Shown: one piece after another, positions 5,525 to 24,342 of the stretch
Layout: each line of letters begins with the position of its first letter
How positions within the stretch are numbered: position 1 is the first letter of the stretch
Origin: an uncultured Alphaproteobacteria bacterium
Lineage (GTDB): Bacteria > Pseudomonadota > Alphaproteobacteria > Sphingomonadales > Sphingomonadaceae
Assembly (NCBI GenBank): GCA_963763915.1
Contig: CAVXQH010000005.1
Location: 87,694 to 151,693, forward strand
Direction: 5' to 3'
Length of the DNA: 64,000 nt
Translations under genes and position numbers: made by a program
The notes under the pieces: model-generated
The model's input: only the letters and a program-made list of their open reading frames with translations
What the model was told of the DNA's origin: nothing
The model's database searches: none

Positions 5525-5830
5525 TTAAACGCGGCGCGATTCGACTTCTTCGTACTCGGCTTCAAGCTTTTGTGCTTTTTCGCAAGCGCCGGTGTCACCT
5601 TCGGCGCATTTGCGCACAGCTTTGTCGCGTTTGACGGCCAAACGGCCAAGTTCTTCTTCTTTTTCGCGGAGACGCTTCCCGCGCTTTTGATCTGACTCGC
5701 TTTCGCTCGTCGTCATCAAATCAACGCCCTTGGACGCGATCTTAAACGGCGCGGTCACCACGTCAGCAGCCATTTGGGCGACGCAGCCTTGCAATAGCAA
5801 AAAAGCAGCAGGGACGAACAACAGGCGCAT
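5525..5830 (-). CDS. Hypothetical lipoprotein
   Basis: Hydrophobic N-terminus with lipobox LQGC, a charged helical C-terminus with two Cys, and a convergent fit to the upstream gene. Confidence 0.75.
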   Translation of the reverse strand: MRLLFVPAAFLLLQGCVAQMAADVVTAPFKIASKGVDLMTTSESESDQKRGKRLREKEEELGRLAVKRDKAVRKCAEGDTGACEKAQKLEAEYEEVESRRV

Positions 5831-6016
5831 GTGCGACTTCCTTTGGCCAGTAGAATGGACGCTGCGCTATCCGCTCATACCTGAGCAAATTCTGAACAGC
5901 AGTCGCAAATTAGCGCATCATGGTTAAGATTTTACTCCGACCTACCCGTCAATATCTTAGGAAATGCAAGGGTTCGAGAGGAGAGCTGCGCCCCGACAAA
6001 CAGGAGGAGAGAGAAA

Positions 6017-6324
6017 ATGAACAAAATAAACGAAGCTTTGGCCGAGATTCTCGACACTTCTTGTTCATCATCATGGGGGCGACAGACGGACGCGCACCTG
6101 CCGGTTTCGCACCGATAGCGATTGGCCTGACGCTTGCGTTGATCCATTTGATTTCGATCCCAGTCACAAACACTTCGGTAAATCCTGCACGTAGCACGGG
6201 CCCAGCCATAGTTGTCGGTGGCATGGCATTGCAGCAACTTTGGTTGTTCTGGGTTGCGCCAATCCTAGGTGCGCTGGTGGGTGGTTTTGTTTACAAAAGC
6301 CTCAACAGCAATAACGCTCAATAA
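6017..6324 (+). pseudogene. aqpZ: Aquaporin Z remnant (internal deletion plus frameshift)
   Basis: RBS and ATG at 6017 give [14 protein letters not shown]. One nucleotide out of frame this continues as [54 protein letters not shown], the AqpZ C-terminal half. Only one NPA motif is present. Confidence 0.85.
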
Positions 6325-6325
6325 A

Positions 6326-7198
6326 TCAGGCGAGCAGGCGGTGTGCCATTTCGCGCACCGCCTCGCCCATGTCTTCGCGTTCGAGCGCTATTGCGAGGTT
6401 GGCCTCGATATAGCCAACCTTTGATCCACAATCATATCGTTTACCGTCGAATTTGACCGCATGGAAGGGTTGGTCGCCAATCATCTGCGCCATCGCATCA
6501 GTTAGCTGTATCTCGCCTCCCGCACCTTTTTCTTGCTTTTCCAGCACACGCATAACCTCAGGTTGCAGGATATAGCGGCCCGAAATGATTAGATTTGAAG
6601 GCGCGTCTTCTTTTTTCGGCTTTTCGACCAGTCCAAGCACTTCGGTCAGCGCACCAACACCTCGCTTGCCCGGCTTGATAACCCCGTAGCTCGACACTTG
6701 ATCCTCCGGCACTTCCAGAACGGAAATCAAGTTGCCACCCACTTCGTTATAGGCCGCCACCATTTGCGCCATGCACCCGGGAGAACCGTGCATGAATTCA
6801 TCGGGTAGGAAAATAGCGAACGGCTCATCGCCGACTATCGCGCGGGCGCACCAAATAGCGTGCCCCAGCCCCATTGGAACCTGCTGCCGCACAGTAATGA
6901 GATCACCGGGCAAGAAGCGCGTGGAATCCAGCACCGACATGTCCTTTTCGCGTTCGGCCATCGTATTCTCAAGCTCGTAAGCAATATCAAAATGCTCGAC
7001 CAATGCAGTCTTGCCACGGCCGGTTACGAAGATCATTTGCTCAATCCCCGCCTCACGCGCTTCATCCACCGCATATTGGATCAGCGGTCGGTCCACGATC
7101 GGCAGCATTTCCTTGGGTATGGCCTTAGTTGCGGGGAGGAAGCGGGTACCTAGTCCAGCGACAGGGAATACGGCTTTACGGATCGGCTTATGGGTCAT
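6326..7198 (-). CDS. galU: UTP--glucose-1-phosphate uridylyltransferase
   Basis: KAVFPVAGLGTRFLPATKAIPKEMLP, VEKP, GRY and GAGGEIQLTDA. Confidence 0.97.
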   Translation of the reverse strand: MTHKPIRKAVFPVAGLGTRFLPATKAIPKEMLPIVDRPLIQYAVDEAREAGIEQMIFVTGRGKTALVEHFDIAYELENTMAEREKDMSVLDSTRFLPGDLITVRQQVPMGLGHAIWCARAIVGDEPFAIFLPDEFMHGSPGCMAQMVAAYNEVGGNLISVLEVPEDQVSSYGVIKPGKRGVGALTEVLGLVEKPKKEDAPSNLIISGRYILQPEVMRVLEKQEKGAGGEIQLTDAMAQMIGDQPFHAVKFDGKRYDCGSKVGYIEANLAIALEREDMGEAVREMAHRLLA

Positions 7199-7331: not shown

Positions 7332-8114
7332 ATGAATGTCTATTCAAAAATGGCAGCTGCCATTTCTTTGTCGGTGCTTTGTGTCTCTGTACCACCCGGA
7401 GGCTTTCCGACTGCACATGCGATGGAAGGCGCGCCAACAAAGCAGGAGCGCGCTGGCAAGTTTGCTTCGATCCTCGTTACCCAAGAAATATTGAACCAAA
7501 ACGCCGAGAAAATTTTGCAAGCGTCGGTGAAAGAAATGATAAAAAACGACGCTGAATTTCGGGCCGACATCAAAGCTTATCCCGGCCTGGATCGAGCCTT
7601 TCTGAATGCGATGCGCCCGATCATGTACGAAGAAATGGCTAGTATATTGCTTCCCTACCGCGAAGATATCGCGGCATTTTTCGGCAGAAAGTTCACATCG
7701 AACGAATTGAGCGAGTTGACGGCGTTTTGGGGCTCTCCCCAGGGTCGGCGCATTTTGGCAACGCTGAATGCGCAAGCAGATTATTCCAATATCGCCGAAG
7801 ATGTTATGAAAGATATGGATTCCGATAAGGTTGAAATCTCTGACGCTTCGCTGAAGCGCGATATGGATGGTTCAATCAATAGGGGAATTAAAGCGCTGAG
7901 CGACGAAGATACCACGGCCTTGGTGAAATTCGCTCAATCGCCGCTTGGCGTCAAATTTGCCAAGGTTCGCCCGGAAAAACAACAAATCGAACTCAAATGG
8001 GCTAATGTCGAGCCCAGCGCTGCAGCAATGGCGCGTATCGAAAAGGAAATTCCAGCCGCCATGGATGCGTTTATCACCGCGGCCGAGAAAAAAAAGACCG
8101 CTTCTGGCGAATAG
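7332..8114 (+). CDS. Exported hypothetical protein (DUF2059-like)
   Basis: Signal peptide ending AHA. Two copies of the motif F(T/S)xxELxxL.xF..SPxG. Confidence 0.7.
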   Translation: MNVYSKMAAAISLSVLCVSVPPGGFPTAHAMEGAPTKQERAGKFASILVTQEILNQNAEKILQASVKEMIKNDAEFRADIKAYPGLDRAFLNAMRPIMYEEMASILLPYREDIAAFFGRKFTSNELSELTAFWGSPQGRRILATLNAQADYSNIAEDVMKDMDSDKVEISDASLKRDMDGSINRGIKALSDEDTTALVKFAQSPLGVKFAKVRPEKQQIELKWANVEPSAAAMARIEKEIPAAMDAFITAAEKKKTASGE

Positions 8115-16773: not shown

Positions 16774-16944
16774 GCGAAGGTTCCGCAAATCGATGAGAGT
16801 GGCGCAGTGCGCAGGCGGTTTCTTGGTGGAAAAACTGTAGCGGAGGCGCGGTGTTCGATTTGGGGTGAAATCGGGTGGCGGTGGCACAGGAATCGCAATT
16901 GCGGCGTTGACCATTTATTGACTGTCGCGTGGCATAACGCGGCT

Positions 16945-17583
16945 ATGCCGCCGGAAATTCTTGCGCTGATGGATAAACCATGGCTGCTCATCGCTGTGCT
17001 GGCGGTGGGTGCGGTTTTGGGAATCGCGGTGGAGCGATTGGTCGAGGGGCAGAAGCGCGCTGAGCGGCGCGCGTATTGGGCGGGGCGTAATTCGGGCAAG
17101 AAGGGCGGCAAGGTTGTGCCGCTTGGCAAGGTCGTGCCCGTCGAGACAGCCAAAGCCATCTGCAGCGCCACCGATCAGCTCGCAACCGTGATGGCCGCCG
17201 ATTTCAGCGCGCGGGCCCTGCTCAACCGGCCAGAGGCCAATCTGTTCAAGGCGCTTGATGCTGCCGTCATTTCACGCAACCCCGGCTGGCAAGTGATGGC
17301 GCAAGTGTCATTGGGCGAGTTTCTCGCCAGCCCCGAAAAGGATGCCTATTGGGCGATCAATGCAAAGCGAGCCGACTTCGCGTTGATGGACGCGCAAGCC
17401 CGCATTGCTCACGTGATCGAATATCAGGGCAGTGGCCATCATCAAGGCACGGCTGCAGCAAGGGACGCGGTAAAGAAGGAAGCGCTGCGCAAGGCAGGCA
17501 TCGGCTATCACGAAGTTGTCGCCGGACATACGACCGCAGGAGAGCTGCGACGGCTGGTGGAGAAACTGGTGCCGGAAGGCTAA
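16945..17583 (+). CDS. DUF2726 domain protein (membrane-anchored, PD-(D/E)xK-like)
   Basis: N-terminal TM helix, LLNRPEA, AQVSLGEFL, KRADF..IEYQGSGH and RDAVKKEALRKAGI. ATG chosen at 16945. Confidence 0.85.
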   Translation: MPPEILALMDKPWLLIAVLAVGAVLGIAVERLVEGQKRAERRAYWAGRNSGKKGGKVVPLGKVVPVETAKAICSATDQLATVMAADFSARALLNRPEANLFKALDAAVISRNPGWQVMAQVSLGEFLASPEKDAYWAINAKRADFALMDAQARIAHVIEYQGSGHHQGTAAARDAVKKEALRKAGIGYHEVVAGHTTAGELRRLVEKLVPEG

Positions 17584-17608
17584 ATTGGTATAAAGCCCCG
17601 AATTGAAA

Positions 17609-18118
17609 ATGACTGACCGCAACCCCGATCCCCTGCCCCATAAATCGCCTGCCCCATCGCCGCGCACCCCATCGCCGCGCATATTGGTCGATGCCGATGC
17701 GTGCCCGGTGAAGGACGAAATTTACAAGGTCGCCTGGCGCCGTGGTGTGCCCGTGGTGCTGGTCAGCAATGCGCGCTTTCGTATGCCCGATCATCCGCTG
17801 ATAACGCGGCATATCGTGTCGGACAGCTTCGACGCCGCCGATGACTGGATCGCGGGGGAAGCGGGGCCACGCAGCGTAGTGATCACCGCCGATATATTGC
17901 TTGCGGACCGGTGCCTGAAGGCAGGAGCCGTGGTCATCGGCAACAATGGCAAGCCGTTCACGAGCGCCTCCATCGGCGGCGCCATCGCCACCCGAGCCAT
18001 CATGGCCGACCTGCGCGCCGGGATGGACGGGATTACGGGAGGGCCAGCGCCGTTTGCCAAAGCTGACCGGTCACGGTTTTTGCAGGCGCTGGATGAAGCG
18101 TTGGTGAGGTTGGGGTGA
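17609..18118 (+). CDS. YaiI/YqxD (UPF0178) family protein
   Basis: ILVDADACPVKDEI, DAADDWI and VITADILLA motifs. Confidence 0.93.
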   Translation: MTDRNPDPLPHKSPAPSPRTPSPRILVDADACPVKDEIYKVAWRRGVPVVLVSNARFRMPDHPLITRHIVSDSFDAADDWIAGEAGPRSVVITADILLADRCLKAGAVVIGNNGKPFTSASIGGAIATRAIMADLRAGMDGITGGPAPFAKADRSRFLQALDEALVRLG

Positions 18119-18262: not shown

Positions 18263-19351
18263 TTACGCCGCCCGTCCGCCTGTGAACAACGCCATCAGCG
18301 GCGCATTGACGAAATAAATGTTCCGCCCCGCCTGCTGCTTTTCCAGCAATCCGCCTGCGACCAACTGTTCAAGATACCGTGCCGCCGTCTGCCGTGTGAC
18401 GCCCAGATCGCGCTGGACGAACTCAATCCTTGTATACGGATGACGGAACAGGTTGTTGAGCAAATCCTGCGAATAGAGCTTGGGATGGTCGGTGCGCAAC
18501 CTTTGCTTGGTTTCGGCCATCAGCGCGGTAATCGCATCGATCAGGTCAAGCGTCGTCCGTGCCGTCTCCCCCACGCCTCGGATCATATAGAGCAGCCACG
18601 GCTCCCACTCGCCCGTTTCGCCGACTTGGCGCAGCAGCCGGTAATAATCGGGCTTACTCGCGGTGATAAAGCGGCTGAGATAGAGGATCGGGAAATCGAG
18701 CAGCCCCTCTTTGGTCAGATACAGCACATTGATGATCCGCCCGATCCGGCCATTGCCGTCGGGAAAGGGGTGGATGCTTTCAAACTGGTGATGGATGATC
18801 GCCATCCGTACCAGCGGGTCAAGCGTGCTGGCATCGTCGTTGATAAAGGCTTCGAGCGCGGTCATGTGGCGGATGATGTCATCGCCGTGCTGCGGCGGTA
18901 CAAAGACAATCTCGCCGCTCTGCTCGTTGCGAAGCGCGGTTCCGGGCGTGTTGCGAAAGCCCGCGGTGCTGCGCTTCAGCGTCTGAAACATGGCGATGAT
19001 GTTGTTGTTGATCAGCAAACCATGCTGCTCCCGCATTCGCTCAAACCCACCGAGCAAGGCCTTCGCATAAAGTGCGACTTCCTTGGCGGCGGGCGATCCT
19101 TGCGCGTCGGGAAACAGGCTCGCCTGAAACATCTCGTCCTGCGTGGTGACAATATTCTCGATTTCAGAACTTGCCTTGGCCTCTTGCAGCGAAAGTGTGT
19201 CGATGAGGATACCGGGATTGGGCATAGCAGCAGCGCGGCCCTTGAGTTCGGCCAGATACCGATGCGCACGCGCAGCCTCTTTAAGCAAGGCAATCGTTTC
19301 AGTCGCGCCGGGCGGCGGCAGGGCGGGGATTTGGTATGTCTCTTTTAACAT
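18263..19351 (-). CDS. Fic family protein with N-terminal inhibitory helix and C-terminal HTH (SoFic-like)
   Basis: Intact Fic motif HPFPDGNGRIGR, (S/T)xxxE(G/N) motif SSEIEN, and a C-terminal GVTRQTAARYLEQL HTH. Confidence 0.93.
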   Translation of the reverse strand: MLKETYQIPALPPPGATETIALLKEAARAHRYLAELKGRAAAMPNPGILIDTLSLQEAKASSEIENIVTTQDEMFQASLFPDAQGSPAAKEVALYAKALLGGFERMREQHGLLINNNIIAMFQTLKRSTAGFRNTPGTALRNEQSGEIVFVPPQHGDDIIRHMTALEAFINDDASTLDPLVRMAIIHHQFESIHPFPDGNGRIGRIINVLYLTKEGLLDFPILYLSRFITASKPDYYRLLRQVGETGEWEPWLLYMIRGVGETARTTLDLIDAITALMAETKQRLRTDHPKLYSQDLLNNLFRHPYTRIEFVQRDLGVTRQTAARYLEQLVAGGLLEKQQAGRNIYFVNAPLMALFTGGRAA

Positions 19352-19499
19352 ATCGGTTCGATCATGTTCGATAATTGGGATTTTTCGAACATATCATGGA
19401 TATATGTTAAGGAAAGCGGAATTTTTTAACAGTGAGCGGTGGTGGCGTGGCTTAGGGGTTATCGCACCTGTCACCGTAATTGTAGTGTCCCCGGAATTC

Positions 19500-19860
19500 T
19501 TAATAATCAATAAGCAGATGAGCCTGTTGAGCCAGCACCTCCGAGTCAGCTTTTTCCATAATCATTCGCGCATCCGATTCTCGATGAGCTATGATCGCCT
19601 TTGCAATGTCTCCAGACACCATTCGCACCGACACATCGAACGTTGTGTCTGCAGAGTCAAAAATAACGCGACGAACTGCCATTCAATCGTGAAATCCTGC
19701 CTACAGCACGTGCTTTCACTAAGGGGCAGATTTTTGATACCAAATCCGCGTACACTGTTCCAACCTGCACGTGCTTAGCCTCGTGCCTGCGAAGCGCTTC
19801 AACCAAGAACAACAAAATTTCGTCATTTGACGCTGTTTCCGCCGCGTGCGCTTTAGTCAC
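19500..19860 (-). CDS. Hypothetical gene(s): two short ORFs (19657-19860 and 19500-19682), possibly one frameshifted gene
   Basis: The GTG at 19860 has a strong RBS (GAGGGAG). The two ORFs are offset by +1 nt. No recognisable family. Confidence 0.45.
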
Positions 19861-19992
19861 AAGCCTTCTCCCTCACATCGAAATTAACATGCAAGCGCGA
19901 CGATAACGAAAGCTGGACATAGCACATTTTCATCACGCTTCGAACCTCAAATTATACATTATCCACAATATACCATTAGCAACCATTCATGG

Positions 19993-21139
19993 TTAATCCA
20001 TCCCAAAGGGCCAACGTCCCTGCATCTCATTCCATTTTGAAGCGATCTCATCGCGTTTACCTGCCGGCAGCTCGTCGACAACTCCCTTGCTATTATTGGA
20101 AAGCCAAAAGTGATCAAGACATCCAACCTGTTCGGCGAACACCACATCCATCACCTCCTCCGGAGATCCTCCTTTGAGAAAGTTTACCGCCTTGCCGTCG
20201 TTCGCTACCACAACCGCTCTGCCCCAAGGCATCACAAACCTCTCCAGATGAGGGGACAGTTTGGAAGAACTGACCGCCTTGGATTTGATCCCAGCAATAT
20301 CGAATTCATTTGCTTTGGACCCTCCACTTACCAAGAGAATTCCATCTCGCGCGTTTTCCAAGTCTTCGACGTTGATGGCTTGATTTGCCGTGGCAGAAAT
20401 GATGACTTCGCTGTCCGCCAACAACGATGCCTTATTTGCCGTACGAAAGTTTTCGAGGCGGGCAAGCAATTTGCTGAGATTCGCTTATGTCACAAACGGC
20501 AACATCATGCCCTCGTCGTGAAAACGCGTTCGCAATCCTGCCCCCAATCATGCCGAAGCTAAAAATCCCAAACCGCTTTCCTTGCAAAATCAGACCACGC
20601 TCTCTCAGCAAGTCGGTCACAACATCAGCTATTGTTTCGCCCACATGGACGGCCTCAGCCTCCTTGAGCGGACTCAATGCAATGCTCAATACGCTAATCG
20701 GAAACTCGGCTATTCCAGCAACATACCTGTTGTGACCGAATCTTGTAACTTCCACAACTCCACGAACGACTTCGCGATCCTCTGCTGAAAGCCGATTGAG
20801 CGGAGCCATGAAATACCCACCCACATCAACAATCGACAAAAGGCGGCCTTCAGCCCTCGCTTCTCTTATCTCGGCAATAAGCAGTGCGTCTAAAAAACCA
20901 GCCTCTTCAAGAACGGAGTATTCCTTCTCAATAACGTGAACTCCAAAACTGCCAATTTCATCAATCGCGGCTTTGTCTTTCGAGTTGGGTTTCGCAACAA
21001 ATGTCCCTACCCTGAATCCATGCTGGATCGACAACCGAAGAAACTCGACTGTATCACGCAACGCATGTTGTAGGACGAGAAGTCGAGTTTTGTTAGCATA
21101 CGGTGATTTGGAAAGGAAAAAGTCGCTGACCGGCAACAT
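19993..21139 (-). pseudogene. Divergent S-adenosylhomocysteine-hydrolase-like NAD-binding protein, split by one +1 frameshift near 20470
   Basis: Colinear with SAHH: LQHA (CLHM), IVDVGGY (ILDDGGD), GVVEVTRFG (GISEETTTG), SPLK (SVTK), Rossmann SFGMIG...CDI, and VVVANDGKAVNF (IILLAEGRLVNL). Removing one base from the TTT at 20470-20472 joins the two ORFs. The frameshift could be real or a sequencing error. Confidence 0.75.
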
Positions 21140-21335
21140 ACCATTATACTGCACAAGCCGCCCCCACCGACACAATTGCAAACAAGCAAGCTATTCAGCT
21201 AGCTAAACGCGCCAGCAGCTAAATGCAATAATGAGAAGCTGCAAGTTTTTTATAACGTTTTGACAACGAAACTACCCTGACCATTCGCTTTGCTCTCGAA
21301 CTGTTTATGCCGAAGGTGCCAATTCCTTTAAAACC

Positions 21336-23241
<1,906 letters not shown>

Positions 23242-23289
23242 GTTTACTTACTCCAAGATTTCGGAAGCAAGAGCGCGGGGGTTGAAGCC

Positions 23290-23385
23290 CGCTCCCTCCC
23301 TCCGCCCGCGTGCTAACGGGATCAGGTTCAGCGGGTCGGGGCGTTACACCGCCTCTCAGTCACATGACTCCCCGGGGATGGATCG
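23290..23385 (-). ncRNA. TPP (THI-box) riboswitch
   Basis: The minus strand reads CCCCGGGGAG..CTGAGA..GACCCG.TGAACCTGATCCCGTTA..CGGGCGGAGGGA, directly upstream of thiC. Confidence 0.95.
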
Positions 23386-23450: not shown

Positions 23451-24146
23451 ATGTCTTGGGTCATGACCCCTCCCGCGCATCAAATCAACGTCCGCCGCAT
23501 GGGGCGCGAAGGCGAGCCGCTCGTAATAATCGACGGCTATAGCGGCATGGTCGATACTCTGCTCGAGGCGGCTTATGCTGCGCAATATCAACCTGCGGGG
23601 GCGTCTTACCCCGGCATCCGGTCTTGGGCTGATCCGAGCTATCTTGATCAGCGCCGCGATCTGATGATGCAGATTATGACGCAGGTGTTCGGCTTTACCA
23701 AAGGCGTGCGGCTTGAAGCATCAACCTATTCAATTGTCACATTAAACGAGCAAGAGCTGGGCCCTCGTCAGCGTATTCCACATTATGATCATGCTGGCGG
23801 TGAAATAATCGCCGTGATGCACTATTTGCTGGGCCCCGAAACCGGCGGCACGGCATTCTACCGCCACCGGCGCACGGGCTTCGAAACGATCATGCCCGCC
23901 AGAGAGGCAGCGTATAACGCGGCATTGGCGCAAGACGAGCGCGAACACGGTATGCCCCCGGCACGCTATTGCTACGGCGACACTGACTGGTTCGAACTGA
24001 TCGACGAGGTAGAAGCGCAACCCGATCGATTGGTGCTTTACCGGGGTCGCCAGCTGCATTCGGGCGTGATCCCTGGCGCATCGATATTATCAAGTAATCC
24101 CCGCGATGGAAGATTGACAATCAACATGTTCCTCGAAGGTTCGTAA
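23451..24146 (+). CDS. DUF6445 family protein (2OG-Fe(II) oxygenase-like)
   Basis: GREGEPLVIID, IPHYD, GGTAFYRH, RLVLYRG..LHSG and GRLTIN motifs. Confidence 0.85.
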   Translation: MSWVMTPPAHQINVRRMGREGEPLVIIDGYSGMVDTLLEAAYAAQYQPAGASYPGIRSWADPSYLDQRRDLMMQIMTQVFGFTKGVRLEASTYSIVTLNEQELGPRQRIPHYDHAGGEIIAVMHYLLGPETGGTAFYRHRRTGFETIMPAREAAYNAALAQDEREHGMPPARYCYGDTDWFELIDEVEAQPDRLVLYRGRQLHSGVIPGASILSSNPRDGRLTINMFLEGS

Positions 24147-24198: not shown

Positions 24199-24342
24199 AT
24201 GCAGCTATTGAACTTGTTTTCGACGAGCCGGACCCGGTTGCCGGTGGTATCCTGTGGCCGATTGGGGCGCGAAGGCGAGCCGCTTGCGCTTATCTGTCCA
24301 GCATGGCGAACCCGACGATTAAAGATATCCGTGCAGCGATAA
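24199..24342 (+). pseudogene. Truncated DUF6445 paralog (N-terminal fragment)
   Basis: RBS AAAGGA and ATG give MQLLNLFSTSRTRLPVVSCGRLGREGEPLALI. 22 nt (24263-24284) are identical to 23500-23521. Confidence 0.6.

Follow-up and report, generated by a model that had tools for sequence, protein, structure and literature searches.

A horizontally acquired two-gene cassette in an uncultured Sphingomonadaceae bacterium encodes a member of an unnamed protein family with a predicted S-adenosylhomocysteine hydrolase fold and an altered active site

S-adenosylhomocysteine hydrolase (SAHH, AhcY) is among the most conserved enzymes, and to our knowledge very few offshoots of its fold with a function of their own are on record. 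Its catalytic set, which we take to be H55, D131, E156, K186, D190, N191 and H301 in the numbering of human AHCY, includes the two ligands of the ribose hydroxyls, E156 and D190; residues of the D131, H301, D134, N80 and D182 type serve the C4'/C5' end of the substrate and the water. The C-terminal tail, with K426 and Y430, completes the nicotinamide adenine dinucleotide (NAD) site of the neighbouring subunit. AgmF of angustmycin biosynthesis is an SAHH-like, NAD+-dependent dehydratase that makes no use of S-adenosylhomocysteine (SAH); it is a self-sufficient NAD+ enzyme, which binds NAD+ tightly, transiently oxidises the nucleoside sugar and keeps H56, D129, K184, D188 and H299, mutation of which abolishes activity (PMC8599513). 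Here we describe an SAHH-like gene at positions 19993-21139 of a stretch of 64,000 nucleotides (the window) from an uncultured alphaproteobacterium of the Sphingomonadaceae (GCA_963763915.1, contig CAVXQH010000005.1, positions 87,694 to 151,693). Sequence comparisons show that its product belongs to a distinct, unnamed family within the SAHH fold. The main features of the locus are the following.

19993 to 21139, minus strand: gene for a protein with a predicted SAHH fold and an NAD-binding domain, of the unnamed 'V-type' family; two open reading frames in the deposited sequence
20476, single position: extra base causing the frameshift of the SAHH-like gene; missing from a metagenome contig
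20543 to 20560, minus strand: dinucleotide-binding motif S194-F-G-M-I-G199; family consensus G-x-G-M-I-G
20663 to 20665, minus strand: codon of K159, equivalent of the SAHH catalytic K186; invariant in 161 of 161 relatives
20317 to 20319, minus strand: codon of S274, at the position of SAHH H301; serine in 160 of 161 relatives
19432 to 21333, no strand assigned: low-GC, strain-specific cassette, approximate extent from composition and from the divergence of related contigs

The minus strand carries two overlapping open reading frames (ORFs), 20432-21181 (249 amino acids) and 19993-20469 (158 amino acids), with a +1 frameshift between them. The gene starts with the methionine at 21139, just ahead of the L-P-V conserved in the family, and its span of 1147 nucleotides equals 382 codons plus one base (3n+1). 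The frameshift named in a preliminary description of this DNA, made from the letters alone, is thus present in the sequence, and deletion of one base fuses both ORFs into a protein of 381 amino acids. A biofilm metagenome contains a contig of 260 nucleotides that matches 20295-20555 in every base but 20476, the absence of which restores the frame to ...CDISESSKLLARLENF..., indicating that an intact allele of the gene exists in nature. Further metagenome pieces from other sequencing runs are 100% identical to the region of the gene.

A Pfam scan of the 381-amino-acid protein gave AdoHcyase_NAD (PF00670, 5e-14) as its sole match; the model of the SAHH substrate domain, PF05221, found no match in this protein. 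Its sequence matches in the PDB were SAHHs throughout, with E-values down to 6e-17. Alignment of profiles with hhalign placed residues 2-374 of the window protein on residues 26-403 of human AHCY (probability 99.94%, E 2.4e-36, 362 columns). The human sequence used for this shares 42-61% identity with database SAHHs, and its numbering agrees with PDB 1li4_A, in which chain residues 122-379 match residues 97-351 of the query. An AlphaFold model, for which an alignment of 24 relatives served as input, had a mean predicted local distance difference test (pLDDT) score of 92.8. The 50 best structures found with it by Foldseek were SAHHs, plus one human SAHH-like AHCYL domain; with about 390 columns aligned and a sequence identity of about 20%, the best matches reached template modelling (TM) scores of 0.77-0.80, the predicted model being compared with SAHH. 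Together, the profile alignment and the predicted structure show a full two-domain SAHH fold with NAD-binding elements, and the colinear similarity over the whole length that had been seen by eye is borne out by both.

The profile alignment also placed the catalytic residues. H25 and K159 occupy the positions of H55 and K186 and are kept. V106 stands in place of D131 (DVGGY), V131 of E156 (EVTRF), A163/V164 of D190/N191 and S274 of H301 (SGGSK), so that five of the seven catalytic positions are replaced. All of these assignments, retained and replaced, coincide with those of the earlier manual alignment. The remaining correspondences around the cleft (window to human) are D29 to E59, K50 to N80, S53 to S83, D105 to D130, Y109 to D134, E130 to E155, T132 to T157, L155 to D182, D217 to E243, E278 to E305, N319 to N346 and S325 to H353. 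At the NAD site, D217, the acidic residue after strand 2, and N319 are present, and the dinucleotide-binding motif reads SxGxxG. The proposal that the NAD-binding fold is retained therefore holds for the acidic residue but not for the first glycine of the motif, which is G in 159 of 161 relatives and serine in the window. The S194 codon is found as well in a metagenome contig identical over 20510-20660, that is, in an environmental allele. The C-terminal tail of SAHH with K426 and Y430 is absent; the alignment stops near human residue 403, beyond which the protein has seven more residues.

On the NCBIfam ahcY equivalog models the window protein scores 79-82 bits, where the cut-offs are 275-497. 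With PF05221 missing and five of seven catalytic positions replaced, this upholds the view that the protein is not the SAHH of the methyl cycle, and the window enzyme presumably does not hydrolyse SAH. That it could nevertheless be a divergent but genuine methyl-cycle SAHH, as the whole-length fold and the NAD domain might be taken to say, we consider scarcely conceivable: besides the score and the loss of the D131, E156, D190, N191 and H301 equivalents, the missing tail and the foreign composition and mobile context described below speak against it.

About 33 relatives, 370-420 or 635-656 amino acids long, came from a word-indexed search; PF05221 is absent from all of them, and their names in the source are missing or generic. 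A family HMM (hidden Markov model) was run against 1.84 billion cluster representatives, and at least 150 proteins scored 268 bits or more, whereas canonical SAHHs reach only 115-150 bits on it. The window protein scores 496 bits on this model, being one of its 24 training sequences, and 78 bits on an SAHH HMM on which true SAHHs score 632-712. For the size of the family only '150 or more' is safe, because canonical SAHHs fall near the threshold of E <= 1e-30 and the 1135 representatives counted there are unusable as a family size. Ten sampled clusters of the family were nameless, bar one 'hypothetical protein'. Among 185,579 species genomes there were about 24 full-length matches, scattered over Proteobacteria, Bacteroidota, Firmicutes, Acidobacteria, Planctomycetes, Myxococcota and the candidate phyla radiation (CPR). 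In the literature we found no description of this family and no characterised member.

Conservation was counted in an alignment of 161 relatives. Invariant or nearly so are H25, S53, G107, G108, Y109, E130, T132, G135, Y139, A154, S156, K159, E162, S274, E278, N319, F320, E336 and W369; in human numbering the family keeps H55, S83, E155, T157, K186, E305 and N346. The D131 position is V, I, L or M in every relative, the H301 position is serine in 160 of them, and D134 is replaced by Y, N80 by K and D182 by R throughout the family, the last of these (R155) being R in 125 relatives and L in the window. The motifs QH-x-L, AKP-x-S, (D/E)(V/I)GGYF, E-x-T-x-x-G-x-x-x-Y and A(R)SPLK-x-x-E, followed by S-x-x-S-x-x-x-E, G-x-x-x-NF and a late invariant E and W, are all present in the window protein, save that R155 is L. 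Since the replacements are conserved across 161 relatives, the changes at the active site define the family and are not random decay. The alignment suggests that the family keeps the NAD site, the catalytic lysine and His55 and rebuilds the pocket for C4'/C5', the leaving group and the water, the new pocket residues (K50, R155, S274, Y109) being basic or hydroxyl-bearing. A side product of the searches is P0112, a metagenomic protein of 827 amino acids in which a genuine SAHH (PF05221 and PF00670, about 260 bits each) is joined to a second NAD-domain unit with a further PF00670 stretch and a KARI_N match at 625-694; it could be a true fusion or the result of a missed stop codon.

The gene stands in DNA of foreign composition. 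The GC content is 46-51% over about 19.2-21.4 kb and 58-66% in the flanks, and GC at third codon positions (GC3) is 0.47-0.55 in the SAHH-like ORFs and 0.72-0.80 in the neighbouring genes, SoFic and thiC; the cassette, first described as AT-rich, is so in a relative sense only. Metagenome contigs of related organisms match the window on the SoFic side as far as about 19431-19475 and on the thiC side down to about 21334 and diverge in between, from which a strain-specific cassette of about 1.9 kb follows. These data show that 19.43-21.33 kb is a horizontally acquired two-gene cassette, read from the minus strand. Direct or inverted repeats flanking it were sought and none was convincing, and the 64-kb window holds no tRNA genes.

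Relatives of the gene are found at the edges of islands, where it comes first after tRNA-Thr (locus L001) or tRNA-Ser (L002), and homologous large serine recombinases adjoin it in three loci (L001, L010, L041). Integrases, TraG/TrwB, relaxase, ArdC and type II restriction-modification genes lie near relatives, whose locations include integrative and conjugative elements (ICEs) and plasmids; one of the latter, a conjugative plasmid of Agrobacterium fabrum, has a member annotated as 'NAD(P)-dependent oxidoreductase'. An origin of the family in phage was considered and rejected, with 2 weak matches among 2.9 million viral contigs. The link to mobile or conflict DNA suspected from the composition fits these ICE, plasmid, tRNA-island and restriction-modification contexts, as well as the CapP-like protease fusions described below.

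The preliminary description had also counted the neighbouring Fic gene as an argument for a conflict module. This gene (18263-19351, minus strand) encodes an intact SoFic-type Fic protein (PADLOC SoFic 1.6e-113; Pfam Fic_N, Fic and SoFic-like_C). The two genes are 640 bp apart on the same strand, and the Fic protein matches a defence model, SoFic. A tblastn search of 39 related loci with the window SoFic protein found no Fic homologue, however, and the GC and GC3 of the SoFic gene are like those of the host, unlike those of the cassette; related organisms share the Fic end before they diverge at the cassette border. The Fic neighbour is therefore probably coincidental, the argument drawn from it falls away, and a single module made of both genes would be most improbable.

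A second gene was recognised in the cassette through the closest relatives of the window protein.

19500 to 19860, minus strand: partner gene for an all-helical orphan of about 120 amino acids; split into ORFs 19657-19860 and 19500-19682
19657 to 19682, minus strand: overlap of the two partner-gene frames, containing the frameshift; a single extra base

These relatives (P0003, P0005 and P0006, in loci L041, L040 and L003) each have an ORF of 122-127 amino acids on the same strand, 40-130 bp downstream of the SAHH-like gene. An HMM of this partner matches the minus strand of the window in two frames, at 19503-19682 (E 1.6e-9, model positions 71-121) and at 19660-19872 (E 1.9e-3, model positions 17-71), indicating that the window has the partner gene and that it, too, is broken by one extra base; the span 19500-19860 is 361 nucleotides (3n+1). 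The downstream ORF proposed from the letters is thus real and conserved, a homologous small ORF standing beside the SAHH-like gene of the closest relatives. With its frame repaired, the protein of about 120 amino acids shares 35-38% identity with P0207 and P0209. Nine members of the partner family in all came out of a profile search through 5.8 billion proteins, six on contigs that carry, or apparently carry, the SAHH-like gene and three on contigs shorter than 1.3 kb. The pairing of the two genes is direct in L003, L040 and L041; for two further contigs it is indirect and derives solely from equal lengths of the contigs. The partner is modelled as a helical bundle (pLDDT 81); its relatives have no Pfam domain or name, and there was no sequence match in the PDB and no Foldseek match with E below 0.9.

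The gene neighbours of the SAHH-like gene were collected in 27 genomic loci. Phosphohydrolase genes are adjacent in several: CYTH in seven loci, NUDIX in three and HD in two. Other partners are NadR-like AAA_28 kinases, a uridine-kinase-like gene, a guanylate kinase, a PurA-like gene and DUF5919 proteins. At least seven representatives carry an N-terminal NUDIX fusion, and such fusions also occur in CPR bacteria. Residue 131, at the E156 position, separates these cases without exception: every NUDIX fusion has D there, as do all 12 genome loci in which a phosphohydrolase partner is present, whereas the window, its closest relatives, the solo loci and ten of ten fusions to an ImmA/IrrE protease combine V at this position with A at that of D190. 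The family thus falls into two subtypes, a D subtype that is always paired with or fused to NUDIX, CYTH or HD enzymes and a V (or V/A) subtype that is solo, adjacent to an XRE gene or fused to ImmA/IrrE; the sequence comparisons show that the window protein belongs to the latter. Searches of the cassette (19200-21400) by tblastn and HMMs for remnants of CYTH, NUDIX, HD, DUF5919 or AAA_28 genes gave nothing better than E of about 0.3, and being without a phosphohydrolase partner is the normal state of the V subtype. The nucleoside-like substrate first proposed for the window protein is consistent with the NUDIX, CYTH and HD partners and the NUDIX fusions of its relatives.

In the ImmA/IrrE fusions the protease is N-terminal, its HExxH motif is intact and its best PADLOC match is capP (2.8e-22). 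Two V-type loci have a divergent XRE gene. The window locus has neither an ImmA/IrrE protease nor an XRE repressor, the protease being found fused in at least ten relatives. CapP/CapH are a DNA-damage-responsive regulator pair of immune operons (bioRxiv 10.1101/2022.04.27.489752, 10.64898/2026.05.16.725639). One might also read the gene as anti-defence cargo of conjugative elements that destroys or sequesters an immune nucleotide signal or restores a depleted metabolite, as its presence on ICEs and plasmids near ArdC, KlcB-like, DUF3768 and transfer genes and the nucleotide-binding nature of the fold would allow. We consider this very unlikely, as the family is nearly absent from phage, in the viral contigs mentioned above, and CapP-type regulators are known from defence operons.

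Some arrangements among the relatives deserve mention in their own right. In Streptomyces achromogenes a three-gene operon (L042, 8595-10680) consists of an RsbW-like HATPase_c_2 kinase gene (14-nucleotide overlap), a D-type gene annotated 'adenosylhomocysteinase' and a NUDIX gene. In two Firmicutes loci (L026, 11133-11873; L030, 3161-3865) a membrane-anchored DUF5919 protein is encoded between the D-type gene and its NUDIX partner. Beside an ImmA-SAHH-like fusion in L007 lie a second, free-standing CapP-like ImmA/IrrE gene (5669-6430) and an ORF of 92 amino acids (7576-7854; MLYVINYDL...) with no family match. In two chromosomal loci (L005, 6951-9086; L036, 8290-10314) the family member is followed by a convergent gene for a GGDEF-EAL protein, an arrangement that may reflect synteny kept within one lineage or a connection with cyclic-di-GMP.

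The best explanation of these observations, which we put forward tentatively, is that the family consists of NAD-dependent enzymes that transform or sense nucleotides as part of a conflict module of mobile elements. Like SAHH and AgmF, the enzyme would hold NAD+ tightly and oxidise a nucleoside moiety transiently at its 3'-OH. Its substrate would be a 5'-phosphorylated nucleotide: the basic and hydroxyl-bearing pocket residues K50, R155, S274 and Y109 suggest an anionic 5' substituent, such as a phosphate, and the NUDIX, CYTH, HD and kinase partners of the sister D subtype point the same way. In that subtype, the NUDIX, CYTH or HD enzymes and the kinases might feed the enzyme or detoxify its product. 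The V/A subtype is without both ligands of the ribose hydroxyls, so a 2'-deoxy or otherwise altered sugar, or mere ligand binding, may apply. The activity would be cargo of the mobile element under the control of a partner. In the window this part would fall to the small helical protein; in other loci a CapP-like ImmA/IrrE protease fused to the enzyme, an XRE regulator or a nucleotide pyrophosphatase would play it. The control partner recurring in each context, together with the mobile and patchy distribution, suggests a conflict function of the family, in defence or toxin-like, and the link of the relatives to nucleotide-cleaving enzymes makes it probable that the family performs new nucleotide chemistry.

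A more specific form of this proposal is that the V-type enzyme and its helical partner make up an undescribed two-gene immune or abortive-infection system on mobile elements, in which the fused CapP-like protease would stand in for the helical partner in other lineages. By NAD-mediated 3'-oxidation, an adapted SAHH scaffold would produce, break down or sense a modified (deoxy)nucleotide, and the D-type modules with NUDIX, CYTH or HD would be the ribonucleotide counterpart. We regard this form as doubtful.

Several findings weigh against a catalytic conflict module. No PADLOC model (PADLOC-DB 2.0) matches the window protein, P0025 or the SAHH-like part of P0012, so the anti-phage membership supposed earlier receives no backing from the known models; the matches of the family's partners in PADLOC are weak or missing as well. 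Relatives also occur in ordinary chromosomal contexts, and restriction-modification genes stand within the nearest six ORFs in only a few of 24 loci. One distant member heads an operon (L037, 7001-15167) with genes for an NDP-sugar epimerase, GT8, a thymidylate-kinase-like protein, GFO/IDH/MocA, APH, a cupin and a DegT aminotransferase, which resembles a nucleoside, sugar or aminosugar biosynthetic cluster. Because of the missing PADLOC match and of these ordinary or biosynthetic-like contexts, a defence role is a hypothesis and not a finding. Furthermore, neither ribose-hydroxyl ligand of SAHH survives in the V/A subtype, and in the ImmA/IrrE fusions the SAHH-like domain lies C-terminal to the protease, so the domain could be a ligand sensor and not an enzyme.

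IrrE and CapP carry a sensor domain C-terminal to the protease. By analogy, the SAHH-like part could be a non-catalytic or ligand-binding module that senses NAD or a nucleotide and controls the fused protease or the helical protein, in the manner of AHCYL/IRBIT. The C-terminal place of V-type members behind a CapP-like protease, the loss of the E156 and D190 equivalents in the V type and the AHCYL structures among the fold and sequence matches agree with such a module. Yet the equivalents of K186 and H55 and the cleft residues E130, T132, E162, S274 and E336 are invariant in 143 to 161 of the 161 relatives, conservation of a polar cleft that is more typical of catalysis, and the pairing and fusion of the sister D type with hydrolases is the pattern of an enzyme pathway. 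We therefore think a sensor unlikely.

The biosynthetic-like operon in L037 raises another reading, an ordinary metabolic or natural-product tailoring enzyme that plays no part in conflict, such as a salvage enzyme or an NAD-dependent nucleoside dehydratase of the AgmF kind. AgmF itself sets the precedent (PMC8599513), and Streptomyces members labelled 'adenosylhomocysteinase' beside NUDIX and the NUDIX fusions in CPR bacteria would suit such a role. But AgmF retains the canonical catalytic residues and the SAHH-like family does not, and the clade of the window protein is found as one- or two-gene cargo near recombinases, integrases and restriction-modification genes, with no biosynthetic neighbours. 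A purely metabolic role thus seems to us rather improbable for the family, and the nucleotide-transforming or -sensing conflict enzyme is still the reading that we prefer.

Further findings that weigh against this preference concern the copy in the window. Both cassette genes carry a +1 frameshift in the deposited sequence. The window protein departs from the family at five of 35 strongly conserved positions (G194S, P149S, L206F, G230N and G251A), of which the median family member misses one, and R155L is an additional departure. The neighbouring thiC (21401-23241, minus strand) is also interrupted: it is read in three consecutive pieces, which hold the ThiC-associated domain, positions 2-222 of the ThiC model and positions 219-392. 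These splits are due to two single-base insertions (1841 nucleotides, 3n+2), and metagenome contigs are without the base at 22125/22128. Between 19500 and 23241 there are therefore four +1 insertions in 3.7 kb, one in the partner gene, one in the SAHH-like gene and two in thiC. In the other 60 kb no frameshift was evident, overlapping same-strand pairs at about 13.1-13.8 kb and 51.6-52.4 kb having been outside this check; a candidate frameshift at 62178-62801/62669-63343 was rejected as an intact guanylate kinase gene with a spurious upstream ORF. The clustering suggests a local assembly-quality problem or local gene decay, and the window copy may be a pseudogene or reflect assembly errors.

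It is quite possible, then, that the cassette here is a dead remnant, both genes being pseudogenes left by a mobile-element insertion that has decayed, irrespective of what the family does in other genomes. The frameshifts in both genes, the doubly frameshifted thiC beside them, the absence nearby of a recombinase, regulator or any other gene of an element, and the changed conserved positions, which include the first glycine of GxGxxG, all fit with decay. On the other hand, the otherwise identical biofilm contig without base 20476 attests an intact allele, four single extra bases within 19.5-23.2 kb also fit a local assembly problem, beyond the frameshifts there are neither stop codons nor deletions, and S194 is shared with the environmental allele.

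The surroundings of the cassette showed a few features with no evident bearing on it. Upstream of thiC lies a thiamine pyrophosphate (TPP) riboswitch (23280-23384, minus strand; 53.6 bits, E 6e-10; the Rfam gathering score is 54.3). On the other side, SoFic is adjoined by plus-strand genes for a DUF2726 protein (16807-17583) and a YaiI/DUF188 protein (17603-18118); the 5' end of the DUF188 gene holds a perfect tandem duplication of 15 nucleotides, CCCCATCGCCGCGCA twice, at 17652-17681. A direct repeat of 28 nucleotides, 93% identical, occurs at 23494-23521, at the start of a DUF6445 gene (...GREGEPL...), and at 24257-24284; the second copy falls in a short ORF 760 bp downstream and is possibly a duplicated gene fragment.

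What emerges from the analysis is an entire family whose active site is altered in a coherent way and whose two subtypes match their partners exactly. NUDIX hydrolases and a CapP-like stress-sensing protease are joined to it in Rosetta-stone fusions, and it lives on mobile DNA; together these features offer a concrete lead towards new NAD-dependent nucleotide chemistry and, possibly, a new class of bacterial conflict module. For annotation, the names 'adenosylhomocysteinase' and 'NAD(P)-dependent oxidoreductase' on genes of the family are uninformative or wrong.

Compared with AhcY (PF05221 plus PF00670), the family is predicted to have the same two-domain fold, with the Rossmann NAD domain and the acidic residue after strand 2, whereas identity is about 20%, and the genes have other partners and are carried by mobile DNA. 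In mechanism the best precedent is AgmF, but the family has another set of residues and other genomic contexts, AgmF being encoded in a biosynthetic cluster. In animals, AHCYL1/2 (IRBIT) show the SAHH fold serving something other than SAH hydrolysis, and two of their structures, 3gvp and 3mtg, are among the matches; they are, however, eukaryotic regulators with an N-terminal extension, and no particular kinship with the family was found, their scores being no better than those of ordinary SAHHs. As in CapP/CapH, many V-type relatives carry an ImmA/IrrE protease with HExxH, at their N-terminus, and two loci have a divergent XRE gene, but in the relatives the protease is fused to the SAHH-like domain and is not a separate regulator, and the window has neither protease nor XRE gene. 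A likeness in logic connects the family with the modules of prokaryotic viperin and nucleotide kinases and with the puromycin-type pair Pur10/Pur7, an NAD-dependent ATP 3'-dehydrogenase and a NUDIX protein: in each, a sugar-modifying enzyme acts on a nucleotide and is accompanied by kinases or NUDIX pyrophosphatases. Their folds, radical SAM in viperin and GFO/IDH/MocA in the Pur10 type, are unrelated to that of the SAHH-like family.

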